NCBI RefSeq assembly: GCF_013122565.1 | Contig: NZ_CP053258.1 | Reading direction: 5' to 3' (one strand) | DNA from: Escherichia coli | Lineage (GTDB): Bacteria > Pseudomonadota > Gammaproteobacteria > Enterobacterales > Enterobacteriaceae | DNA length: 64,000 nucleotides | Shown here: positions 12,226 to 22,268 of the stretch, piece by piece | Numbering within the stretch: the first letter of the stretch is position 1 | Layout: every line of letters starts with the position of its first letter | The notes under the pieces: generated by a model | The model's input: only the letters and a program-made list of their open reading frames with translations | The model's database searches: none | What the model was told of the DNA's origin: nothing | Position numbers and translations under genes: made by a program

Positions 12226-13101
12226 ATGACCAGTAGCTATCTGCATTTTCCGGAGTTTGATCCGGTCATTTTCTCAATAGGACCCGTGGCGCTTCACTGG
12301 TACGGCCTGATGTATCTGGTGGGTTTCATTTTTGCAATGTGGCTGGCAACACGTCGGGCGAATCGTCCGGGCAGCGGCTGGACCAAAAATGAAGTTGAAA
12401 ACTTACTCTATGCGGGCTTCCTCGGCGTCTTCCTCGGGGGACGTATTGGTTATGTTCTGTTCTACAATTTCCCGCAGTTTATGGCCGATCCGCTGTATCT
12501 GTTCCGTGTCTGGGACGGCGGCATGTCCTTCCACGGCGGCCTGATTGGCGTTATCGTGGTGATGATTATCTTCGCCCGCCGTACTAAACGTTCCTTCTTC
12601 CAGGTTTCTGATTTTATCGCACCACTCATTCCGTTTGGTCTTGGTGCCGGGCGTCTGGGCAACTTTATTAACGGTGAATTGTGGGGCCGCGTTGACCCGA
12701 ACTTCCCGTTTGCCATGCTGTTCCCAGGCTCCCGTACAGAAGATATTTTGCTGCTGCAAACCAACCCGCAGTGGCAATCCATTTTCGACACTTACGGTGT
12801 GCTGCCGCGCCACCCATCACAGCTTTACGAACTGCTGCTGGAAGGTGTGGTGCTGTTTATTATCCTCAACCTGTATATTCGTAAACCGCGCCCAATGGGA
12901 GCTGTCTCAGGCTTGTTCCTGATTGGCTACGGCGCGTTTCGCATCATTGTTGAGTTTTTCCGCCAGCCCGACGCGCAGTTTACCGGTGCCTGGGTGCAGT
13001 ACATCAGCATGGGGCAAATTCTTTCCATCCCGATGATTGTCGCGGGTGTGATCATGATGGTCTGGGCATATCGTCGCAGCCCACAGCAACACGTTTCCTG
13101 A
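12226..13101 (+). CDS. lgt: Prolipoprotein diacylglyceryl transferase
   Basis: 291 aa membrane protein; followed 6 nt later by thyA. Confidence 0.92.
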
Positions 13102-13107
13102 GGAACC

Positions 13108-13902
13108 ATGAAACAGTATTTAGAACTGATGCAAAAAGTGCTCGACGAAGGCACACAGAAAAACGACCGTACCGGAACCGGAACGCTTTCCATTTTTGGT
13201 CATCAGATGCGTTTTAACCTGCAGGATGGATTCCCGCTGGTGACAACTAAACGTTGCCACCTGCGTTCCATCATCCATGAACTGCTGTGGTTTCTGCAGG
13301 GCGACACTAACATTGCTTATCTACACGAAAACAATGTCACCATCTGGGACGAATGGGCCGATGAAAACGGCGACCTCGGGCCAGTGTATGGTAAACAGTG
13401 GCGCGCCTGGCCAACGCCAGATGGTCGTCATATTGACCAGATCACTACGGTACTGAACCAGCTGAAGAACGACCCGGATTCCCGCCGCATTATTGTTTCA
13501 GCGTGGAACGTAGGCGAACTGGATAAAATGGCGCTGGCACCGTGCCATGCATTCTTCCAGTTCTATGTGGCAGACGGCAAACTCTCTTGCCAGCTTTATC
13601 AGCGCTCCTGTGACGTCTTCCTCGGCCTGCCGTTCAACATTGCCAGCTACGCGTTACTGGTGCATATGATGGCGCAGCAGTGCGATCTGGAAGTGGGTGA
13701 TTTTGTCTGGACCGGTGGCGACACGCATCTGTACAGCAACCATATGGATCAAACTCATCTGCAATTAAGCCGCGAACCGCGTCCGCTGCCGAAGTTGATT
13801 ATCAAACGTAAACCCGAATCCATCTTCGACTACCGTTTCGAAGACTTTGAGATTGAAGGCTACGATCCACATCCGGGCATTAAAGCGCCGGTGGCTATCT
13901 AA
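13108..13902 (+). CDS. thyA: Thymidylate synthase
   Basis: 264 aa; classic ThyA sequence including the active-site region [13 protein letters not shown]. Confidence 0.95.
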
Positions 13903-13923
13903 TTACGAAACATCCTGCCAGAG

Positions 13924-13951
13924 CCGACGCCAGTGTGCGTCGGTTTTTTTT
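13924..13951 (+). terminator. Intrinsic terminator after thyA
   Basis: Stem CCGACGC / GCGTCGG with loop CAGTGT, followed by an 8-T run, 22 nt after the thyA stop. Confidence 0.65.
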
Positions 13952-14086
13952 ACCCTCCGTTAAATTCTTCGAGACGCCTTCCCGAAATTTTGCAACGTCC
14001 TGCAACGGCGTAAATAGTCCGGAAGATGCGCCGAAGAAATAGAAACTGGCCCTCGTCTTTTTTTCTCCTCGCTCCATACTGCCGGC

Positions 14087-14557
14087 ATGAAAACACAACG
14101 TGGTTATACGCTGATTGAAACGCTGGTCGCGATGCTGATTTTGGTCATGCTAAGTGCAAGTGGACTCTATGGCTGGCAATACTGGCAGCAGTCGCAACGG
14201 CTATGGCAAACCGCCAGCCAGGCGCGAGACTATTTGCTCTATTTACGTGAAGATGCCAACTGGCATAACCGCGACCACAGTATCAGCGTTATCAGGGAGG
14301 GGACGTTATGGTGCCTTGTGAGTTCCGCTGCTGGGGCGAATACTTGTCATGGCAGTTCACCATTGGTCTTTGTGCCACGCTGGCCCGAAGTCGAAATGAG
14401 CGACCTGACACCTTCGCTTGCTTTCTTTGGCCTGCGCAATACCGCATGGGCCGGGCATATTCGCTTCAAAAACTCAACGGGCGAGTGGTGGCTGGTGGTT
14501 TCGCCGTGGGGAAGACTCCGGCTTTGTCAGCAAGGAGAAACAGAAGGATGCCTGTAA
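14087..14557 (+). CDS. ppdA: Prepilin peptidase-dependent protein A (type IV pseudopilin-like)
   Basis: 156 aa; N-terminal prepilin motif [16 protein letters not shown]. Confidence 0.88.
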
Positions 14558-15111
14558 AAGAGCAAGGTTTTTCTCTGCTGGAAGTGTTGATTGCTATGGC
14601 GATCAGTAGCGTATTGTTGCTGGGGGCAGCACGCTTTCTGCCAGCGTTACAGCGTGAAAGTTTAACGAGCACCCGTAAGCTGGCGCTGGAAGATGAAATC
14701 TGGCTGCGGGTATTTACCGTCGCGAAGCATCTCCAGAGGGCGGGTTATTGTCATGGCAGCTGTACCGGCGAAGGGCTGGAAATTGTCGGACAGGGTGACT
14801 GTGTCATTGTGCAGTGGGATGCGAACAGTAACGGTATCTGGGATCGCGAACCGGTAAAAGAGTCCGACCAGATTGGATTTCGTCTGAAGGAGCATGTGCT
14901 GGAAACGCTACGCGGTGCGACATCCTGTGAAGGTAAGGGCTGGGATAAAGTCACTAATCCGGATGCCATCATTATCGACACTTTTCAGGTCGTACGTCAG
15001 GATGTCAGCGGCTTCTCGCCGGTGTTGACGGTTAATATGCGTGCTGCCAGTAAGTCTGAACCGCAAACCGTGGTGAATGCCAGCTATAGCGTGACAGGAT
15101 TCAACCTGTGA
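14548..15111 (+). CDS. ppdB: Prepilin peptidase-dependent protein B
   Basis: Start chosen at [19 protein letters not shown] (ATG 14548), which has a prepilin leader; the track ORF from 14308 is an in-frame upstream extension overlapping ppdA. Confidence 0.85.
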
Positions 15112-15515
15112 ACCGCGAAAAGGGTGTTTCGTCACTGGCTCTGGTCCTGATGTTGCTGGTTTTGGGTAGCTTGCTATTACAAGGAATGAGCCAACAGGAT
15201 CGCAGTTTTGCCTCTCGCGTGAGCATGGAAAGTCAGTCATTGCGCCGCCAGGCCATCGTTCAGTCGGCGCTGGCGTGGGGAAAAATGCACTCCTGGCAGA
15301 CGCAGCCAGCAGTTCAGTGCTCGCAGTACGCTGGAACCGATGCTCGGGTTTGTTTGCGTTTATTGGCAGATAATGAAGCCTTATTGATTGCCGGTTATGA
15401 AGGCGTTTCGTTGTGGCGAACAGGTGAAGTCATCGATGGAAACATTGGTTTTTCGCCACGCGGCTGGAGCGATTTTTGTCCGCTGAAAGAGGGGGCGTTA
15501 TGTCAGCTTCCCTGA
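15108..15515 (+). CDS. ygdB: Putative pseudopilin-associated protein
   Basis: 135 aa with N-terminal hydrophobic segment; overlaps ppdB stop (ATGA-type coupling); synteny. Confidence 0.8.
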
Positions 15516-15823
15516 AGAATCAACAAGGCTTTAGCCTGCCGGAGGTAATGTTGGCGATGGTGTTGATGGTGGTGATTGTCACTGCGTTATCGGGTTTCCA
15601 GCGAACATTAATGAACAGTCTTGCCAGCAGAAACCAGTACCAACAGCTCTGGCGGCATGGTTGGCAGCAAACGCAACTGCGCGCGATTTCGCCACCTGCA
15701 AACTGGCAGGTCAACCGAATGCAGACATCGCAGGCGGGATGTGTCAGCATCAGCGTTACGCTAGTTTCACCCGGGGGCAATGCAGGCGAGATGACCCGCC
15801 TGCATTGCCCGAATCGTCAGTAG
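15500..15823 (+). CDS. ppdC: Prepilin peptidase-dependent protein C
   Basis: Start at [20 protein letters not shown] (ATG 15500) with a prepilin motif; 107 aa. Confidence 0.85.
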
Positions 15824-15835
15824 TCAGGAGCCGCT

Positions 15836-18800
15836 ATGTTAAGGGTCTACCATTCCAATCGTCTGGACGTGCTGGAAGCGTTGATGGAGTTTATTGTCGA
15901 ACGCGAACGGCTGGACGATCCTTTCGAACCAGAGATGATTCTGGTGCAAAGTACCGGTATGGCACAGTGGCTGCAAATGACCCTGTCGCAAAAGTTTGGT
16001 ATTGCGGCAAACATTGATTTTCCGCTGCCAGCGAGCTTTATCTGGGATATGTTCGTCCGGGTGTTACCGGAGATCCCCAAAGAGAGTGCCTTTAACAAAC
16101 AGAGCATGAGCTGGAAACTGATGACTCTGCTGCCGCAATTGCTGGATCGCGAAGACTTTACCCTGCTGCGGCATTATCTGACTGACGATAGCGACAAGCG
16201 AAAACTGTTCCAGCTTTCCTCAAAAGCGGCGGACCTGTTTGACCAGTATCTGGTCTATCGTCCGGACTGGCTGGCACAGTGGGAAACAGGACATTTGGTT
16301 GAAGGGCTGGGAGAGGCACAGGCCTGGCAAGCGCCGTTGTGGAAGGCGCTGGTGGAATATACACATGAACTCGGACAACCGCGCTGGCACCGCGCCAATC
16401 TCTATCAGCGCTTTATCGAAACGCTGGAGTCCGCGACGACCTGCCCGCCGGGGTTACCTTCGCGCGTCTTTATATGCGGTATTTCCGCGTTACCGCCTGT
16501 TTATCTCCAGGCGCTCCAGGCGCTGGGTAAACATATTGAAATCCATCTCCTGTTTACCAACCCTTGCCGTTATTACTGGGGCGATATTAAAGATCCTGCT
16601 TATCTGGCGAAACTGCTGACCCGCCAGCGTCGACACAGTTTTGAAGATCGCGAATTGCCGCTATTTCGCGATAGCGAAAATGCCGGACAGCTCTTTAACA
16701 GCGACGGTGAACAGGATGTCGGCAACCCGCTACTGGCCTCCTGGGGCAAGTTGGGGCGCGACTATATCTATCTCCTTTCCGATCTGGAGAACAGTCAGGA
16801 GCTGGACGCCTTTGTCGATGTCACGCCAGATAACCTGCTGCATAACATTCAGTCTGACATTCTGGAACTGGAAAACCGCGCCGTTGCTGGTGTGAACATC
16901 GAAGAATTTTCTCGTAGCGATAACAAACGCCCGCTTGATCCACAAGATAACAGCGTCACCTTCCACGTATGCCACAGCCCGCAGCGTGAAGTTGAAGTTT
17001 TACACGATCGCCTGCTGGCGATGCTGGAGGAAGACCCGACACTTACTCCGCGCGACATCATCGTGATGGTGGCTGATATCGACAGCTACAGTCCGTTTAT
17101 TCAGGCTGTGTTTGGTAGCGCACCTGCGGATCGTTACCTGCCTTACGCCATTTCCGACCGTCGGGCGCGGCAGTCGCATCCTGTACTTGAAGCGTTTATC
17201 AGCCTGTTATCGTTGCCAGACAGCCGCTTTGTGTCGGAAGACGTGCTGGCATTACTGGATGTGCCGGTGCTGGCGGCGCGGTTTGACATCACCGAAGAAG
17301 GGCTGCGTTATTTACGCCAGTGGGTCAACGAATCCGGCATTCGTTGGGGGATAGATGACGACAACGTTCGCGAGCTGGAACTCCCCGCCACCGGACAACA
17401 CACCTGGCGATTTGGCCTGACGCGTATGTTGTTGGGTTACGCGATGGAGAGCGCGCAGGGCGAGTGGCAATCGGTTCTACCTTATGATGAATCGAGCGGC
17501 TTAATTGCAGAACTGGTGGGGCATCTGGCTTCCCTGCTAATGCAGCTAAACATCTGGCGTCGCGGGCTGGCACAGGAGCGTCCGCTGGAAGAGTGGTTGC
17601 CGGTTTGTCGCGATATGCTCAACGCCTTCTTCCTGCCGGATGCGGAAACCGAAGCGGCGATGACGCTGATCGAACAACAATGGCAGGCGATTATCGCCGA
17701 AGGTTTAGGTGCGCAGTATGGCGACGCGGTGCCGCTGTCACTATTGCGTGATGAACTGGCACAGCGTCTGGATCAAGAACGTATCAGCCAGCGTTTTCTC
17801 GCCGGACCGGTTAACATTTGTACTCTGATGCCAATGCGTTCAATTCCGTTCAAAGTGGTTTGCCTGCTGGGAATGAACGACGGCGTTTATCCACGTCAGC
17901 TTGCGCCATTGGGCTTTGACCTGATGAGCCAGAAACCGAAGCGTGGCGACCGTAGCCGTCGCGATGACGACCGCTACCTGTTCCTGGAAGCGTTAATTTC
18001 CGCGCAGCAAAAACTCTATATCAGCTATATCGGGCGTTCCATTCAGGATAACAGTGAACGTTTCCCGTCGGTACTGGTGCAGGAACTGATCGACTACATC
18101 GGGCAAAGTCATTATCTACCGGGCGATGAAGCGCTCAACTGTGATGAAAGCGAGGCAAGGGTAAAAGCGCATCTTACTTGCCTCCATACCCGGATGCCGT
18201 TTGATCCGCAAAACTACCAGCCAGGCGAACGACAAAGCTATGCTCGTGAATGGCTACCTGCGGCCAGCCAGGCTGGTAAAGCACATTCTGAATTTGTTCA
18301 GCCGCTGCCGTTTACCTTACCGGAAACCGTGCCGCTGGAAACGCTACAACGATTCTGGGCACATCCGGTGCGGGCGTTCTTCCAGATGCGTTTGCAGGTG
18401 AACTTCCGTACTGAAGACAGCGAAATCCCCGACACCGAGCCATTTATTCTGGAAGGGCTTAGCCGTTATCAAATCAATCAGCAGTTATTGAATGCACTGG
18501 TTGAGCAGGATGATGCCGAACGCTTGTTCCGCCGCTTCCGGGCGGCAGGGGATTTACCGTATGGCGCTTTTGGTGAAATTTTCTGGGAAACACAGTGCCA
18601 GGAGATGCAGCAGCTTGCCGACAGAGTCATTGCCTGTCGCCAGCCGGGGCAGAGTATGGAAATTGATCTCGCCTGCAACGGTGTGCAGATAACTGGCTGG
18701 TTGCCGCAGGTGCAGCCGGATGGCCTGTTGCGCTGGCGTCCCTCTTTATTAAGTGTGGCGCAGGGAATGCAACTTTGGCTGGAACACCTTGTCTACTGTG

Positions 18801-19204
18801 CCAGCGGTGGTAATGGTGAAAGTCGCCTTTTTCTACGCAAAGACGGCGAGTGGCGTTTTCCGCCGCTTGCAGCCGAACAGGCTTTGCATTACCTCTCACA
18901 ACTGATTGAGGGGTATCGTGAAGGGATGTCCGCGCCATTGCTGGTGTTACCTGAAAGTGGCGGCGCGTGGCTAAAAACCTGTTATGACGCGCAAAACGAT
19001 GCCATGCTGGATGACGATTCCACGTTGCAAAAAGCCCGTACGAAATTCCTTCAGGCTTACGAAGGCAACATGATGGTGCGTGGCGAAGGTGATGATATCT
19101 GGTATCAAAGGCTCTGGCGGCAATTAACACCAGAGACAATGGAGGCCATCGTTGAACAGTCGCAACGTTTCCTGTTACCGCTGTTTCGCTTTAATCAGTC
19201 ATGA
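15836..19204 (+). CDS. recC: Exodeoxyribonuclease V gamma subunit RecC
   Basis: 1122 aa ORF directly downstream of the ppd genes; synteny with ptrA, recB and recD. Confidence 0.93.
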   Translation: MLRVYHSNRLDVLEALMEFIVERERLDDPFEPEMILVQSTGMAQWLQMTLSQKFGIAANIDFPLPASFIWDMFVRVLPEIPKESAFNKQSMSWKLMTLLPQLLDREDFTLLRHYLTDDSDKRKLFQLSSKAADLFDQYLVYRPDWLAQWETGHLVEGLGEAQAWQAPLWKALVEYTHELGQPRWHRANLYQRFIETLESATTCPPGLPSRVFICGISALPPVYLQALQALGKHIEIHLLFTNPCRYYWGDIKDPAYLAKLLTRQRRHSFEDRELPLFRDSENAGQLFNSDGEQDVGNPLLASWGKLGRDYIYLLSDLENSQELDAFVDVTPDNLLHNIQSDILELENRAVAGVNIEEFSRSDNKRPLDPQDNSVTFHVCHSPQREVEVLHDRLLAMLEEDPTLTPRDIIVMVADIDSYSPFIQAVFGSAPADRYLPYAISDRRARQSHPVLEAFISLLSLPDSRFVSEDVLALLDVPVLAARFDITEEGLRYLRQWVNESGIRWGIDDDNVRELELPATGQHTWRFGLTRMLLGYAMESAQGEWQSVLPYDESSGLIAELVGHLASLLMQLNIWRRGLAQERPLEEWLPVCRDMLNAFFLPDAETEAAMTLIEQQWQAIIAEGLGAQYGDAVPLSLLRDELAQRLDQERISQRFLAGPVNICTLMPMRSIPFKVVCLLGMNDGVYPRQLAPLGFDLMSQKPKRGDRSRRDDDRYLFLEALISAQQKLYISYIGRSIQDNSERFPSVLVQELIDYIGQSHYLPGDEALNCDESEARVKAHLTCLHTRMPFDPQNYQPGERQSYAREWLPAASQAGKAHSEFVQPLPFTLPETVPLETLQRFWAHPVRAFFQMRLQVNFRTEDSEIPDTEPFILEGLSRYQINQQLLNALVEQDDAERLFRRFRAAGDLPYGAFGEIFWETQCQEMQQLADRVIACRQPGQSMEIDLACNGVQITGWLPQVQPDGLLRWRPSLLSVAQGMQLWLEHLVYCASGGNGESRLFLRKDGEWRFPPLAAEQALHYLSQLIEGYREGMSAPLLVLPESGGAWLKTCYDAQNDAMLDDDSTLQKARTKFLQAYEGNMMVRGEGDDIWYQRLWRQLTPETMEAIVEQSQRFLLPLFRFNQS

Positions 19205-19379
19205 GTGCTGTATAAAAATTGCGCAATCTATCCGCTTACTTTATGATGCGCACCAGTCACGGACTGATGGTTATATAAACATAGGCTGACTCGTGCAGCA
19301 CCAGATTAAATTTTGGCAGATGATTTGCGTTAACCTGTTGAATCTGGCCAGAAAATAAAGTTGATTATGAGGTCCGTGA

Positions 19380-22268
19380 ATGCCCCGCAGCACCTGGTTT
19401 AAAGCATTATTGTTGTTTGTTGCCCTCTGGGCACCCTTAAGTCAGGCAGAAACGGGATGGCAGCCGATTCAGGAAACCATCCGTAAAAGTGATAAAGATA
19501 ACCGCCAGTATCAGGCTATACGTCTGGATAACGGTATGGTGGTCTTGCTGGTTTCTGATCCGCAGGCAGTTAAATCGCTATCGGCGCTGGTGGTGCCCGT
19601 TGGGTCGCTGGAAGATCCCGAGGCGTACCAGGGGCTGGCACATTACCTTGAACATATGAGTCTGATGGGGTCGAAAAAGTACCCGCAGGCTGACAGTCTG
19701 GCCGAATATCTCAAAATGCACGGCGGTAGTCACAATGCCAGCACTGCGCCGTATCGCACGGCTTTCTATCTGGAAGTTGAGAACGACGCCTTGCCCGGTG
19801 CGGTAGACCGCCTGGCCGATGCTATTGCAGAACCCTTGCTCGACAAGAAATACGCCGAACGTGAGCGTAATGCAGTGAACGCTGAATTAACCATGGCGCG
19901 TACGCGTGACGGGATGCGCATGGCACAGGTCAGCGCAGAAACCATTAACCCGGCACACCCCGGTTCAAAGTTTTCTGGTGGTAACCTCGAAACTTTAAGC
20001 GATAAACCTGGTAATCCGGTGCAGCAGGCGCTGAAAGATTTCCACGAGAAGTACTATTCCGCCAATTTGATGAAGGCGGTTATTTACAGTAATAAACCGC
20101 TGCCGGAGTTGGCAAAAATGGCGGCGGACACCTTTGGTCGCGTGCCGAACAAAGAGAGCAAAAAACCGGAAATCACCGTGCCGGTAGTCACCGACGCGCA
20201 AAAGGGCATTATCATTCATTACGTCCCAGCGCTGCCGCGTAAAGTTCTGCGCGTTGAGTTTCGCATCGATAACAACTCAGCGAAGTTCCGCAGTAAAACG
20301 GATGAATTGATTACCTATCTGATTGGTAATCGCAGCCCAGGTACACTTTCTGACTGGCTGCAAAAGCAGGGATTAGTTGAGGGCATTAGCGCCAACTCCG
20401 ATCCTATCGTCAACGGCAACAGCGGTGTATTAGCGATCTCTGCGTCTTTAACCGATAAAGGTCTGGCGAATCGCGATCAGGTTGTGGCGGCCATTTTTAG
20501 CTACCTCAATCTGTTACGTGAAAAAGGGATCGATAAACAATACTTTGATGAACTGGCGAATGTGCTGGATATCGACTTCCGTTATCCGTCAATCACCCGT
20601 GATATGGATTACGTCGAATGGCTGGCAGATACCATGATTCGCGTTCCGGTTGAGCATACGCTGGATGCAGTCAATATTGCCGATCGGTACGATGCTAAAG
20701 CAGTAAAAGAACGTCTGGCGATGATGACGCCGCAGAATGCGCGTATCTGGTATATCAGCCCGAAAGAGCCGCACAATAAAACGGCTTATTTTGTCGATGC
20801 GCCGTATCAGGTCGATAAAATCAGCGAACAAACTTTCGCTGACTGGCAGCAAAAAGCTGCCAATATTGCGCTCTCCTTACCGGAGCTTAACCCCTATATT
20901 CCTGACGATTTCTCGCTGATTAAGTCAGAGAAGAAATATGACCATCCAGAGCTGATTGTTGATGAGTCGAATCTGCGCGTGGTGTATGCGCCAAGCCGTT
21001 ATTTTTCCAGCGAACCCAAAGCTGATGTCAGCCTGATTTTGCGTAATCCGAAAGCCATGGACAGCGCCCGCAATCAGGTGATGTTTGCGCTCAATGATTA
21101 TCTCGCAGGGCTGGCGCTTGATCAGTTAAGCAACCAGGCGTCGGTTGGTGGCATAAGTTTTTCCACCAACGCTAACAACGGCCTTATGGTTAATGCTAAT
21201 GGTTACACCCAGCGTCTGCCGCAGCTGTTCCAGGCATTGCTGGAGGGCTACTTTAGCTATACCGCCACGGAAGATCAGCTTCAGCAGGCAAAGTCCTGGT
21301 ATAACCAGATGATGGATTCCGCAGAAAAGGGCAAAGCGTTCGAGCAGGCGATTATGCCCGCGCAGATGCTCTCGCAAGTGCCGTACTTCTCGCGAGATGA
21401 ACGGCGCAAAATTTTGCCCTCCATTACGTTGAAAGAGGTACTGGCCTATCGCGACGCCTTAAAATCAGGGGCTCGACCAGAGTTTATGGTTATCGGCAAT
21501 ATGACCGAGGACCAGGCAACAACGCTGGCACGCGATGTGCAAAAACAGTTGGGCGCTGATGGTTCAGAGTGGTGTCGTAACAAAGATGTCGTGGTCGATA
21601 AAAAACAATCCGTCATCTTTGAAAAAGCTGGTAACAGCACCGACTCCGCACTGGCAGCGGTATTTGTACCGACTGGCTACGATGAATACACCAGCTCAGC
21701 CTATAGCTCTCTGTTGGGGCAGATCGTACAGCCGTGGTTCTACAATCAGTTGCGTACCGAAGAACAGTTGGGCTATGCCGTGTTTGCGTTTCCAATGAGC
21801 GTGGGGCGTCAGTGGGGCATGGGCTTCCTTTTGCAAAGCAATGATAAACAGCCTTCATTCTTGTGGGAGCGTTACAAGGCGTTTTTCCCAACCGCAGAGG
21901 CAAAATTGCGGGCGATGAAGCCAGAAGAGTTTGCGCAAATCCAGCAGGCGGTAATTACCCAGATGCTGCAGGCACCGCAAACGCTCGGCGAAGAAGCATC
22001 GAAGTTAAGTAAAGATTTCGATCGCGGCAATATGCGCTTCGATTCGCGTGATAAAATCGTGGCCCAGATAAAACTGCTGACGCCGCAAAAACTTGCTGAT
22101 TTCTTCCATCAGGCGGTGGTCGAGCCGCAAGGCATGGCTATTCTGTCGCAGATTTCCGGCAGCCAGAACGGGAAAGCCGAATATGTGCATCCTGAAGGCT
22201 GGAAAGTGTGGGAGAACGTCAGCGCGTTGCAGCAAACAATGCCCCTGATGAGTGAAAAGAATGAGTGA
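19380..22268 (+). CDS. ptrA: Protease III (pitrilysin), M16 zinc metalloprotease
   Basis: 962 aa; signal peptide; inverted zinc motif HYLEHM present. Confidence 0.93.
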   Translation: MPRSTWFKALLLFVALWAPLSQAETGWQPIQETIRKSDKDNRQYQAIRLDNGMVVLLVSDPQAVKSLSALVVPVGSLEDPEAYQGLAHYLEHMSLMGSKKYPQADSLAEYLKMHGGSHNASTAPYRTAFYLEVENDALPGAVDRLADAIAEPLLDKKYAERERNAVNAELTMARTRDGMRMAQVSAETINPAHPGSKFSGGNLETLSDKPGNPVQQALKDFHEKYYSANLMKAVIYSNKPLPELAKMAADTFGRVPNKESKKPEITVPVVTDAQKGIIIHYVPALPRKVLRVEFRIDNNSAKFRSKTDELITYLIGNRSPGTLSDWLQKQGLVEGISANSDPIVNGNSGVLAISASLTDKGLANRDQVVAAIFSYLNLLREKGIDKQYFDELANVLDIDFRYPSITRDMDYVEWLADTMIRVPVEHTLDAVNIADRYDAKAVKERLAMMTPQNARIWYISPKEPHNKTAYFVDAPYQVDKISEQTFADWQQKAANIALSLPELNPYIPDDFSLIKSEKKYDHPELIVDESNLRVVYAPSRYFSSEPKADVSLILRNPKAMDSARNQVMFALNDYLAGLALDQLSNQASVGGISFSTNANNGLMVNANGYTQRLPQLFQALLEGYFSYTATEDQLQQAKSWYNQMMDSAEKGKAFEQAIMPAQMLSQVPYFSRDERRKILPSITLKEVLAYRDALKSGARPEFMVIGNMTEDQATTLARDVQKQLGADGSEWCRNKDVVVDKKQSVIFEKAGNSTDSALAAVFVPTGYDEYTSSAYSSLLGQIVQPWFYNQLRTEEQLGYAVFAFPMSVGRQWGMGFLLQSNDKQPSFLWERYKAFFPTAEAKLRAMKPEEFAQIQQAVITQMLQAPQTLGEEASKLSKDFDRGNMRFDSRDKIVAQIKLLTPQKLADFFHQAVVEPQGMAILSQISGSQNGKAEYVHPEGWKVWENVSALQQTMPLMSEKNE

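Follow-up and report, generated by a model that had tools for sequence, protein, structure and literature searches.

The described systems most similar to the pilin-like genes beside recC in Escherichia coli include comNOPQ of Haemophilus influenzae (HI0938-HI0941), which are needed for DNA uptake and belong to the CRP-S/Sxy regulon (PMC1635313, PMC12616744). The ppd genes have been named orthologous to this set, there given as pulG-HI0941, because both sets adjoin recC (PMC1635313). The E. coli ppd operon is regulated by Sxy, with ppdA as its most induced gene (PMC12616744), and induction by Sxy together with CRP is credited to Sinha 2009 and Jaskolska & Gerdes 2015 in PMC12616744. A reconstituted E. 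coli type IV pilus (T4P) system names the four genes as minor pilins (bioRxiv 856302), and deletions of core minor pilins abolish pilus assembly in EHEC, as stated in the review PMC7248040 with reference to Luna Rico 2019. PpdD, a pilin of the Sxy regulon, was undetectable in 72 of 72 ECOR strains, no natural condition is known under which E. coli K-12 expresses the PpdD pilus, and natural transformation has not been demonstrated in E. coli (PMC3330819).

The original prediction, made for the locus studied here, had called the linkage of a cryptic pilin-like set to recC conserved and functionally unexplained. The latter is out of date, as PMC7248040 and bioRxiv 856302 assign these genes as core minor pilins for assembly of the PpdD pilus. 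Taken as a whole, we consider it very probable that the products of the ppdA-ppdB-ygdB-ppdC operon are the four core minor pilins for a chromosomal type IVa pilus (competence pseudopilus) with PpdD as its major subunit, and that Sxy/CRP induces the operon; some read-through into recC is probable.

Layout and conservation of the locus

The window, a stretch of 64,000 nucleotides, is ordinary E. coli, and the ppd cluster beside recC in it is the known E. coli locus; the adjacency is real, conserved and already documented. The RefSeq annotation gives the same four genes and recC:

14087-14557, + strand: ppdA, 156 aa, minor pilin of the GspH/FimU class, positional orthologue of ComN (ORF listing, RefSeq)
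14548-15111, + strand: ppdB, 187 aa, ATG start, GspJ/PilW-class minor pilin
15108-15515, + strand: ygdB (DUF2509), 135 aa, GTG start, small pilin-fold protein without Glu5, assigned to the GspK/PilX place within the tip complex
15500-15823, + strand: ppdC, 107 aa, small minor pilin, presumed GspI/PilV class
15824-15835, + strand: ppdC-recC spacer, TCAGGAGCCGCT, 12 nt, with the recC Shine-Dalgarno AGGAG at 15826-15830
15836-19204, + strand: recC, 1122 aa, RecBCD gamma subunit

The overlaps that had been read from the open reading frames are confirmed as 10 nt (14548/14557), 4 nt (15108/15111, GTGA) and 16 nt (15500/15515), and recC was placed correctly, its ATG beginning at the 13th base past the ppdC stop. 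Compared with E. coli K-12 (ppdA-ppdB-ygdB-ppdC, b2826-b2823, and recC, b2822), gene set, order, overlaps and the 12-nt spacer are identical, nucleotide identity per gene is 97.3-99.5%, the thyA-ppdA spacer differs by one T only, located in the terminator run, and the proteins differ in nine amino acids overall (one in PpdB, five in YgdB, three in PpdC). Of the 5426 complete E. coli genomes, 5425 carry DNA of the ppd-recC locus at a coverage of at least 80% and an identity of 95-99% or higher.

Linkage to recC holds well beyond E. coli, with the order thyA-ppd-recC found in all 80 of the Enterobacterales species loci compared and the 12-nt ppdC-recC spacer recurring in 32 species loci; as a novelty, however, it does not stand, since the adjacency was reported for Enterobacteriaceae and Pasteurellaceae in 2006 and 2025 (PMC1635313, PMC12616744). 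The great majority of the 80 loci have four intact ORFs with conserved leaders, cysteines and overlaps. Exceptions are two insect symbionts (L060, L081), in which the ppd genes are broken and their remnants still lie beside an intact recC, and Yersinia pestis, in which ppdA is truncated. Among the 120 matches listed in a profile search with PpdA orthologues, only Enterobacteriaceae were found. In more distant loci of gammaproteobacterial type, related minor-pilin clusters adjoin ileS-lspA-ispH: two of three full distant loci adjoin ileS-lspA, and the third (L093) neither ileS-lspA nor recC. Furthermore, recC does not lie 3' of the DUF2509-containing cluster of L092, and pilin genes are missing from the region 5' of recC in two loci whose RecC is about 50% identical.

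The four proteins as minor pilins

Assignment of the ppd proteins to the pilin family is far above chance. The prepilin-like leaders that had been noticed in PpdA, PpdB and PpdC are borne out by the G|(F/Y)xxxE pattern (MKTQRG| in PpdA, MPVKEQG| in PpdB) and by matches to Pfam N_methyl (E = 3e-7, 6e-9 and 5e-7 for PpdA, PpdB and PpdC, respectively). NCBIfam equivalogs match PpdA (E = 1e-75), PpdB (1e-99), YgdB (8e-76) and PpdC (2e-64); Pfam T2SSppdC matches PpdC (E = 3e-30) and Pfam DUF2509 matches YgdB. A short polar leader, Gly at -1 and a hydrophobic residue at +1 are present in all four proteins (PpdA G|Y, PpdB G|F, PpdC G|F, YgdB G|V). PpdA, PpdB and PpdC have Glu at +5, both in the window and in the Enterobacterales orthologues listed, and the leaders are kept among orthologues as G|YTLIE (PpdA) and G|FSLPE (PpdC). 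The term 'prepilin peptidase-dependent' is a historical name and should be read as annotation only.

YgdB starts with MNREKG| followed by a hydrophobic helix and has Ala at +5, a position never occupied by Glu among the 71 orthologues listed; it is therefore a non-canonical pilin. The earlier reading of the locus had passed over this missing Glu5, a known trait of the GspK/PilX-position member.

The pilin fold, a long N-terminal alpha-helix on a beta-sheet, is present and was shown for PpdB and YgdB by fold comparison. PpdB falls into the J class, with a Thermus type IV-like pilin as its best match, and YgdB is given the K position for its absent Glu5, although its fold matches to GspI are equally good. 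The GspH Pfam domain was found in 17 of 46 PpdA orthologues. Searching the PpdB and YgdB profiles against PDB sequences yielded almost nothing, the sole exception being TTHA1219 for PpdB. We provisionally assign PpdA to GspH/FimU, PpdB to GspJ/PilW, YgdB to the GspK/PilX position and, presumably, PpdC to GspI/PilV.

The overlapping genes are translated as a coupled unit. If GspHIJK and FimU-PilVWX are a guide, prepilin peptidase would cleave the four putative prepilins, and contacts between the N-terminal helices would then hold them together as a tip complex, whose protein order is likewise taken from the analogy. Such a complex would prime the polymerisation of PpdD, with the Glu5-less YgdB on top.

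The thyA-ppdA spacer

The following features were found upstream of ppdA:

13920-13951, + strand: intrinsic terminator of thyA, a hairpin of 11 pairs with its 3' arm leading into a T8 run, separating thyA from the ppd promoter region
13968-13983, + strand: CRP-S-like element A, TTCGA-GACGCC-TTCCC, conserved, in other genera TGCGA-N6-TTCCA/TCGCA
13991-14007, + strand: direct repeat TGCAACG-TCC-TGCAACG, period 10 bp
14019-14036, + strand: CRP-S-like element B, conserved, in other genera T(G/C)CG(T/A)A-N-TCG(T/C)A, in Escherichia and Citrobacter degenerate (CGGAA..CCGAA)
14075-14080, + strand: -10-like hexamer CATACT, elsewhere TACACT/TAAACT, six bases 5' of the ppdA ATG and without a Shine-Dalgarno

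The terminator folds at -16.6 kcal/mol (z = -4.4; none of 200 shuffles equals it), and in the spacer alignment its hairpin and T-run are kept across Enterobacteriaceae. Element A emerged from the spacer alignment of 44 loci combined with a scan for core matches. Its copy in the window agrees with the TGCGA-N6-TCGCA core at 6 of 10 positions, and neither CRP-S-like copy of the window exceeds this value. In Hafnia (L080) and Yersinia (L073), complete cores (10/10) precede ppdA, their equivalence to element A of the window being putative, and 8-9 of 10 core positions match at the offset of element B in Klebsiella, Kosakonia, Phytobacter and Cedecea-like loci. Element A is named as a candidate CRP-S site, the Sxy dependence of ppdA itself being taken from the literature. 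The TGCAACG repeat ranks among the best-conserved blocks of the spacer, is found in nearly all Enterobacteriaceae loci and is not CRP-like; a sigma-54 promoter at this repeat was ruled out by the spacing (10 instead of 11 nt) and the absent GG. The columns of CATACT are conserved, with an equivalent arrangement in Serratia, Yersinia, Rouxiella and Tatumella, and the placement of the hexamer suggests that ppdA may be translated from a leaderless mRNA.

The ppd promoter is placed in this spacer of 184 nt; it is off in ordinary culture and is reported to be turned on by CRP and Sxy (TfoX), probably at non-canonical CRP-S sites, whose positions given here are predictions.

The ppdC-recC junction and a candidate recC promoter

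That recC is co-transcribed with the pilin genes, as originally predicted, holds in part: the pilin genes are translationally coupled and share a strand with recC, and no terminator lies in between, whereas a conserved block within ppdC makes an independent recC promoter likely. No terminator was found from ppdA to recC in a terminator scan, which gave terminator-like matches at chance level inside genes only; read-through past ppdC is therefore plausible, and one paper treats ppdAB-ygdB-ppdC-recC as an operon (PMC3936743). A scan of the + strand from 13700 to 16300 found no consensus promoter at a threshold of 9/12, and the scanning also missed the thyA terminator that folding confirms. The two elements named beforehand as speaking against a joint transcript were a terminator and an own promoter for recC; the terminator is absent and a promoter candidate is present, with which additional read-through is still compatible. 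An Rfam search of 13000-20000 returned nothing at E <= 1. The idea that a conserved RNA hairpin or attenuator separates ppdC from recC was rejected, as the strong hairpin there is private to the window strain, an alignment of 30 sequences contained neither a consensus stem nor covariation and the K-12 version folds no better than shuffles.

The candidate promoter consists of:

15722-15751, + strand: near-invariant block in ppdC, with CAGACA (15722-15727), a 17-nt spacer ending in TGT (15742-15744) and CAGCAT (15745-15750)
15742-15750, + strand: its extended -10 part, TGTCAGCAT, candidate sigma-70 promoter of recC

The predicted recC transcript would start at about 15757, corresponding to approximately 2,962,505-2,962,510 on the minus strand of K-12 (NC_000913.3). 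Synonymous-codon identity in the 5-codon window GCVSI of this block amounts to 0.985, the highest among 930 windows drawn from thyA, ppdA, ppdB, ygdB, ppdC and recC (mean 0.60, sd 0.09). The block was found in 47 Enterobacteriaceae loci, 114 nt from the recC ATG where the spacer is short (12-15 nt), and is absent where the ppdC-recC spacer holds TTGCAt-N16/17-TA(G/A)AGT, so that its distribution is complementary to the spacer promoters of Yersiniaceae, Erwiniaceae and Hafniaceae. By consensus the candidate is weak (4/6 and 3/6 plus TG) and stays uncalled at the 9/12 threshold. Lab-grown MG1655 contains about 4.7 RecC molecules per cell (PMC6536506); as RecC is made in ordinary culture while the Sxy regulon is silent, and the ppdC block is conserved, an independent recC promoter is likely. 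Nothing usable on a recC promoter came out of the literature searches.

Co-transcription probably accounts for only part of recC expression. Everyday expression would most likely come from the weak promoter inside the ppdC coding sequence (15722-15750), and Sxy-driven transcripts probably extend into recC, 12 nt further on and behind no terminator. The full proposal is put forward tentatively, as a possibility somewhat short of even: in Enterobacteriaceae a housekeeping recC promoter would lie within ppdC and recC would be under dual control, constitutive and by Sxy/CRP-S read-through, with an equivalent promoter in the expanded spacer of Yersiniaceae, Erwiniaceae and Hafniaceae. If true, this regulatory entanglement would also help to explain the long-kept adjacency of pilin genes and recC. 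With a likely recC promoter within ppdC, deletion of ppdC may also impair RecBCD unintentionally; the Keio ppdC mutant with its cassette removed, for example, may lose this promoter and show a RecBCD-deficient phenotype.

One further feature of ppdC belongs to the window strain:

15775-15810, + strand: perfect 14-bp inverted repeat, GGGCAATGCAGGCG / CGCCTGCATTGCCC, with an 8-nt loop, in the last ppdC codons and without a U-run after it

It folds at -30.7 kcal/mol compared with -19.9 in K-12, where 11 of 14 positions are complementary (12 of 14 in O157). Compared with K-12, the private change that perfects the palindrome alters PpdC at R94N and E95A. Over 81 nt, the best match in a complete E. 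coli genome does not exceed 97.5%, and just a single contig is on record with an identical PpdC. The palindrome is private to the window strain, which carries WP_171460434.1; the hairpin is not conserved and has no covariation.

Alternative explanations

Could the five genes form a single operon, in which a promoterless recC is transcribed from the ppdA promoter or by read-through from thyA? The 12-nt spacer, the shared strand, the absent terminator, the operon name in use (PMC3936743) and the lack of a + strand consensus promoter at 13700-16300 agree with this, but it leaves about five copies of RecC per cell to be made in ordinary culture while the Sxy regulon is off, and it has to contend with a strong thyA terminator, with a 30-nt block in ppdC that hardly varies, synonymous sites included, and with the good TTGCAt-N17-TAGAGT motif just 5' of recC in families with longer spacers; we regard it as distinctly unlikely. 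A functional coupling of pilus and recombination, implied by the original prediction and also suggested in 2025 (PMC12616744), would have competence induction raise RecC along with the DNA-uptake pilus for the processing of incoming DNA. Conserved adjacency in 80 of 80 Enterobacterales loci and, as reported, in Pasteurellaceae (PMC12616744, PMC1635313) stands on its side, as does the absent terminator, which makes read-through likely. Against it, recC alone would be raised, recB and recD lying behind ptrA in a separate unit, and taken-up DNA enters the cell single-stranded. Moreover, related clusters elsewhere adjoin ileS-lspA-ispH, no recC lies near L093, the cluster of L092 is not upstream of recC, and two recC loci of about 50% identity have no pilin genes in front. 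On balance the coupling is unlikely.

That E. coli keeps the ppd genes as decaying relics, mainly since the recC control region overlaps them, is very unlikely. The failure to find natural expression or transformation in E. coli (PMC3330819), the putative recC promoter within ppdC and the ppd remnants beside intact recC in the symbionts L060 and L081 would fit such decay; however, the ORFs are intact and leaders, cysteines and overlaps conserved in the vast majority of the 80 loci, the locus DNA persists at 80% coverage or more in 5425 E. coli genomes, the reconstituted pilus system needs the four genes according to bioRxiv 856302 and PMC7248040, and the entanglement would shield the last ~100 nt of ppdC only and not ppdA, ppdB or ygdB. 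Reading the proteins as pseudopilins of type II secretion, with a role in protein secretion instead of in a pilus, as the Pfam family name T2SSppdC and a likeness in structure to GspH, GspJ, GspI and GspK might invite, is extremely improbable: the likeness sits at the shared level of the minor pilin/pseudopilin superfamily, and the best match of PpdB is the Thermus type IV-like pilin. Besides, type II secretion operons have their own gspH-K. In PMC12616744, bioRxiv 856302 and PMC7248040, the ppd genes are placed in the T4P and competence system.

Comparison with known systems

The genes, their pilin nature, the Sxy/CRP control and the recC adjacency are already in the literature. As a discovery the present analysis therefore carries little weight; its practical value lies in the caution it adds to ppdC deletions and in a test whether competence raises RecC.

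With comNOPQ of H. influenzae, the ppd locus shares four pilin-like genes of similar size, co-oriented, directly 5' of recC and regulated by Sxy, PpdA/ComN coming first in order and being induced most strongly (PMC1635313, PMC12616744). The two sets differ in that their sequence similarity is below the reach of BLAST (PMC1635313), so that orthology rests on position, and in that E. coli lacks demonstrated natural transformation (PMC3330819). The fimU-pilV-pilW-pilX genes of Pseudomonas aeruginosa, which encode core minor pilins, and the related clusters adjoining ileS-lspA-ispH contain a GspH-like and a PpdB-family protein, then a Glu5-less/PilX_N protein and a small pilin, and priming of pilus assembly is their proposed role, as for ppd. 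Their PilX-position protein is much larger than YgdB (about 300-400 aa), a gene for the PilY1 adhesin is present in L093, and the order H-J-K-I of E. coli ppd contrasts with H-I-J-K. Compared with the GspH-GspI-GspJ-GspK tip complex of ETEC (PDB 3ci0), YgdB with its 135 aa is without the large alpha-domain of GspK, and the ppd system makes a pilus, not a secretion piston.

Organisation of the locus

According to the ORF listing and annotation, the genes in the window follow the chromosomal order ptsP-lgt-thyA-ppdA-ppdB-ygdB-ppdC-recC-ptrA, and the region is a standard segment of the E. coli chromosome. A 2-kb query of the locus is matched by 5425 of the 5426 complete E. coli genomes (95-99% identity or better, coverage at least 80%), all matching loci being annotated as ppdA, ppdB, ygdB, ppdC and recC; the window genes are 97.3-99.5% identical to those of strain K-12.

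14087-14557, plus strand: ppdA
14548-15111, plus strand: ppdB
15108-15515, plus strand: ygdB, GTG start
15500-15823, plus strand: ppdC
15836-19204, plus strand: recC

Overlaps measure 10 nt (ppdA/ppdB), 4 nt (ppdB/ygdB) and 16 nt (ygdB/ppdC), and a 12-nt spacer containing AGGAG separates ppdC from recC. The sequence bears out all cluster coordinates and overlaps of the original prediction, as well as its distance of 13 nt to recC, a count which takes in the first base of the ATG. Both ppdC and recC share one reading frame, with TAG plus four codons in between (15821-15838), and predicted PpdC-RecC fusions with N_methyl, T2SSppdC and RecC_N domains can be found in the protein database (P0008, P0118), presumably originating from stop-codon variants or gene-calling artefacts. 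Scanning of the 175-nt recC-ptrA spacer (19205-19379) detected neither a terminator-like nor a promoter-like site.

The encoded pilin-like proteins

The prepilin leaders proposed for PpdA, PpdB and PpdC are present in the window proteins, all three of which match Pfam N_methyl and NCBIfam equivalogs; PpdC additionally matches T2SSppdC, and YgdB corresponds to DUF2509 (Pfam). Comparing the locus collected from 80 Enterobacterales species, we found the leaders kept as G|(Y/F)(T/S)LIE in PpdA, G|F(S/T)LLE in PpdB and G|FSLPE in PpdC, while YgdB always shows a Gly followed by a hydrophobic helix and never a Glu at position +5. Because of these conserved leaders and a YgdB that is the member devoid of Glu5, the four genes resemble the core minor-pilin sets known as GspH/J/K/I or FimU/PilW/PilX/PilV, the class of PpdC being presumed.

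Transcription of recC

Co-transcription of the cluster with recC, as originally predicted, is favoured by the shared strand, the 12-nt spacer, a scan of 14087-15836 that returned no intrinsic terminator, a strong thyA terminator upstream of the cluster (RNA folding) and the operon name ppdAB-ygdB-ppdC-recC already in use (PMC3936743). Against it as the whole story stands the presence of RecC in ordinary MG1655 cultures at about 4.7 molecules per cell (PMC6536506), while the Sxy regulon is not expressed and PpdD is made by 0 of 72 ECOR strains (PMC3330819); recC is also said to have its own promoter, distinct from that of recB (PMC6536506). Since RecC is made with the Sxy regulon silent, a cis element for recC was sought. 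In the nucleotide alignment of the ppdC-recC junction, CAGACA and GGATGTGTCAGCATC turned out to be almost invariant within an otherwise poorly conserved ppdC:

15722-15751, plus strand: near-invariant block in ppdC, composed of CAGACA (15722-15727), a 17-nt spacer ending in TGT, and CAGCAT (15745-15750)

The codons for GCVSI (15737-15751) reach a synonymous-codon identity of 0.985, ranking first among 930 five-codon windows (mean 0.60, sd 0.09) from thyA, ppdA, ppdB, ygdB, ppdC and codons 1-400 of recC. Read as a promoter for recC, for which it is a candidate, the block combines a weak -35 and an extended -10 and would start transcription close to 15757, some 80 nt 5' of the recC start codon. 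Enterobacteriaceae loci with the block number 47; the loci of Yersiniaceae, Erwiniaceae and Hafniaceae lack it. In these three families, and in a few Enterobacteriaceae, the ppdC-recC spacer extends over 75-204 nt, reaching 1225 nt in Erwinia sp. 198 (L064; long spacers in loci L044, L052-L056, L059, L062-L064, L066, L069-L073, L077-L083). Thirteen block-less loci with long spacers carry TTGCAt-N16/17-TA(G/A)AGT therein, and the complementary distribution of block and spacer motif is as would be expected from a relocated recC promoter. Two Serratia ppdC-recC spacers contain a REP-like palindrome (CCCTCTCCCTGTGGGAGAGGG). Co-transcription is retained as far as strand, spacing and absence of a terminator after ppdC are concerned; an independent recC promoter, for which the block in ppdC is the candidate, is likely.

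Close to the end of ppdC lies a feature private to this strain:

15775-15810: perfect 14-bp inverted repeat (-30.7 kcal/mol) within the last ppdC codons

At the same site, 11 of 14 positions are complementary in K-12 and 12 of 14 in O157:H7; the adjacent substitutions of the window all perfect the palindrome and result in R94N and E95A in PpdC. Complete RefSeq E. coli genomes offer no match better than 97.5% over 81 nt of this region, and the exact PpdC protein (WP_171460434.1) is recorded from a single 4.82-Mb contig. The palindrome carries the hallmark of a mutation by quasi-palindrome template switch, or is possibly an assembly artefact. The hairpin was not regarded as a terminator because it lacks a U-run and is not conserved.

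The thyA-ppdA region

The 184-nt thyA-ppdA spacer differs from its K-12 counterpart by a single T. A cross-genus alignment revealed the following blocks:

thyA-ppdA spacer: thyA terminator, conserved across genera
thyA-ppdA spacer: CRP-S-like block TTCGAGACGCCTTCCC, TGCGA-N6-TTCCA in other genera
13991-14007: direct repeat TGCAACG-TCC-TGCAACG, 10-bp period
thyA-ppdA spacer: second CRP-S-like block, conserved across genera
14075-14089 region: -10-like CATACT (TACACT elsewhere), six bases 5' of the ppdA ATG

The direct repeat is among the best-kept spacer elements across Enterobacteriaceae; its sequence is not CRP-like. Perfect TGCGA-N6-TCGCA sites precede ppdA in Hafnia and Yersinia, the E. coli copies being degenerate, and the blocks are compatible with a conserved CRP-S promoter (the non-canonical CRP site type used with Sxy), either E. 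coli block being a putative site. The -10-like hexamer lies six bases 5' of the ppdA start codon, which no Shine-Dalgarno sequence precedes; this combination, also seen in Serratia, Yersinia and Rouxiella, suggests a leaderless ppdA mRNA.

Extent of the linkage and relation to known systems

As predicted, the linkage to recC is conserved: the order thyA-ppdA-ppdB-ygdB-ppdC-recC is retained in essentially all 80 RecC-anchored Enterobacterales loci, with overlaps of -10 nt in 45, -4 in 65 and -16 in 40. The sole apparent exception, Ca. Erwinia dacicola, still holds the YgdB C-terminus and PpdC N-terminus beside an IS fragment that interrupts its ppd genes; the ppd copies of Ca. Pantoea persica are eroded and shortened, and ppdA is truncated in Yersinia pestis. 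In these three (L060 1-1023, L081 6450-7932, L069 6226-6402), ppd erosion accompanies an intact recC. One metagenomic relative retains ppd-recC-ptrA and lacks thyA. At two recC loci where RecC identity is only about 50%, the upstream genes are SLAC1, LysR and YebG, with no ppd linkage, and a DUF2509-containing cluster (L092, 619-2392) is followed by a DEAD-box helicase gene, not by recC. In distant PpdB-family clusters, genes resembling gspH and ppdB are joined by one for a large protein (PilX_N or uncharacterised) and one for a small pilin, and in some cases by PilY1. Three further related minor-pilin clusters lie outside the recC context:

L088, 4942-8361
L089, 5036-8004
L093, 4249-12600

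Two distant PpdB-family clusters adjoin ileS-lspA-ispH; the third (L093) has a PilY1 gene and no recC nearby. Features seen among the three are a ComP_DUS-like pilin encoded on the opposite strand and an enlarged protein in the PilX position. Two further metagenomic contigs with PpdB-family clusters were too short for placing neighbours. As the linkage is lost in distant loci, recC adjacency is a derived arrangement of the Enterobacterales lineage and, according to the literature, of Pasteurellaceae.

The original prediction called the linkage functionally unexplained, which does not hold. In work that reconstituted the type IV pilus of E. coli, the four genes serve as minor pilins (bioRxiv 856302, a synthetic-biology preprint), and deletion of the core minor pilins in EHEC is described as causing a strong pilus-assembly defect (Luna Rico et al. 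2019, as cited in the review PMC7248040). Sxy regulates the E. coli operon, ppdA being most strongly induced (PMC12616744). In view of this published work, and of the orthology to H. influenzae pulG-HI0941 that was assigned to the E. coli genes on the basis of recC adjacency (PMC1635313), both function and linkage are already known; what is mildly new is limited to the private palindrome and the candidate promoter for recC within ppdC. A counterpart occurs in the Pasteurellaceae, in which comNOPQ generally lie 5' of recC in the same orientation and comN-Q are required for DNA uptake (PMC12616744, 2025).
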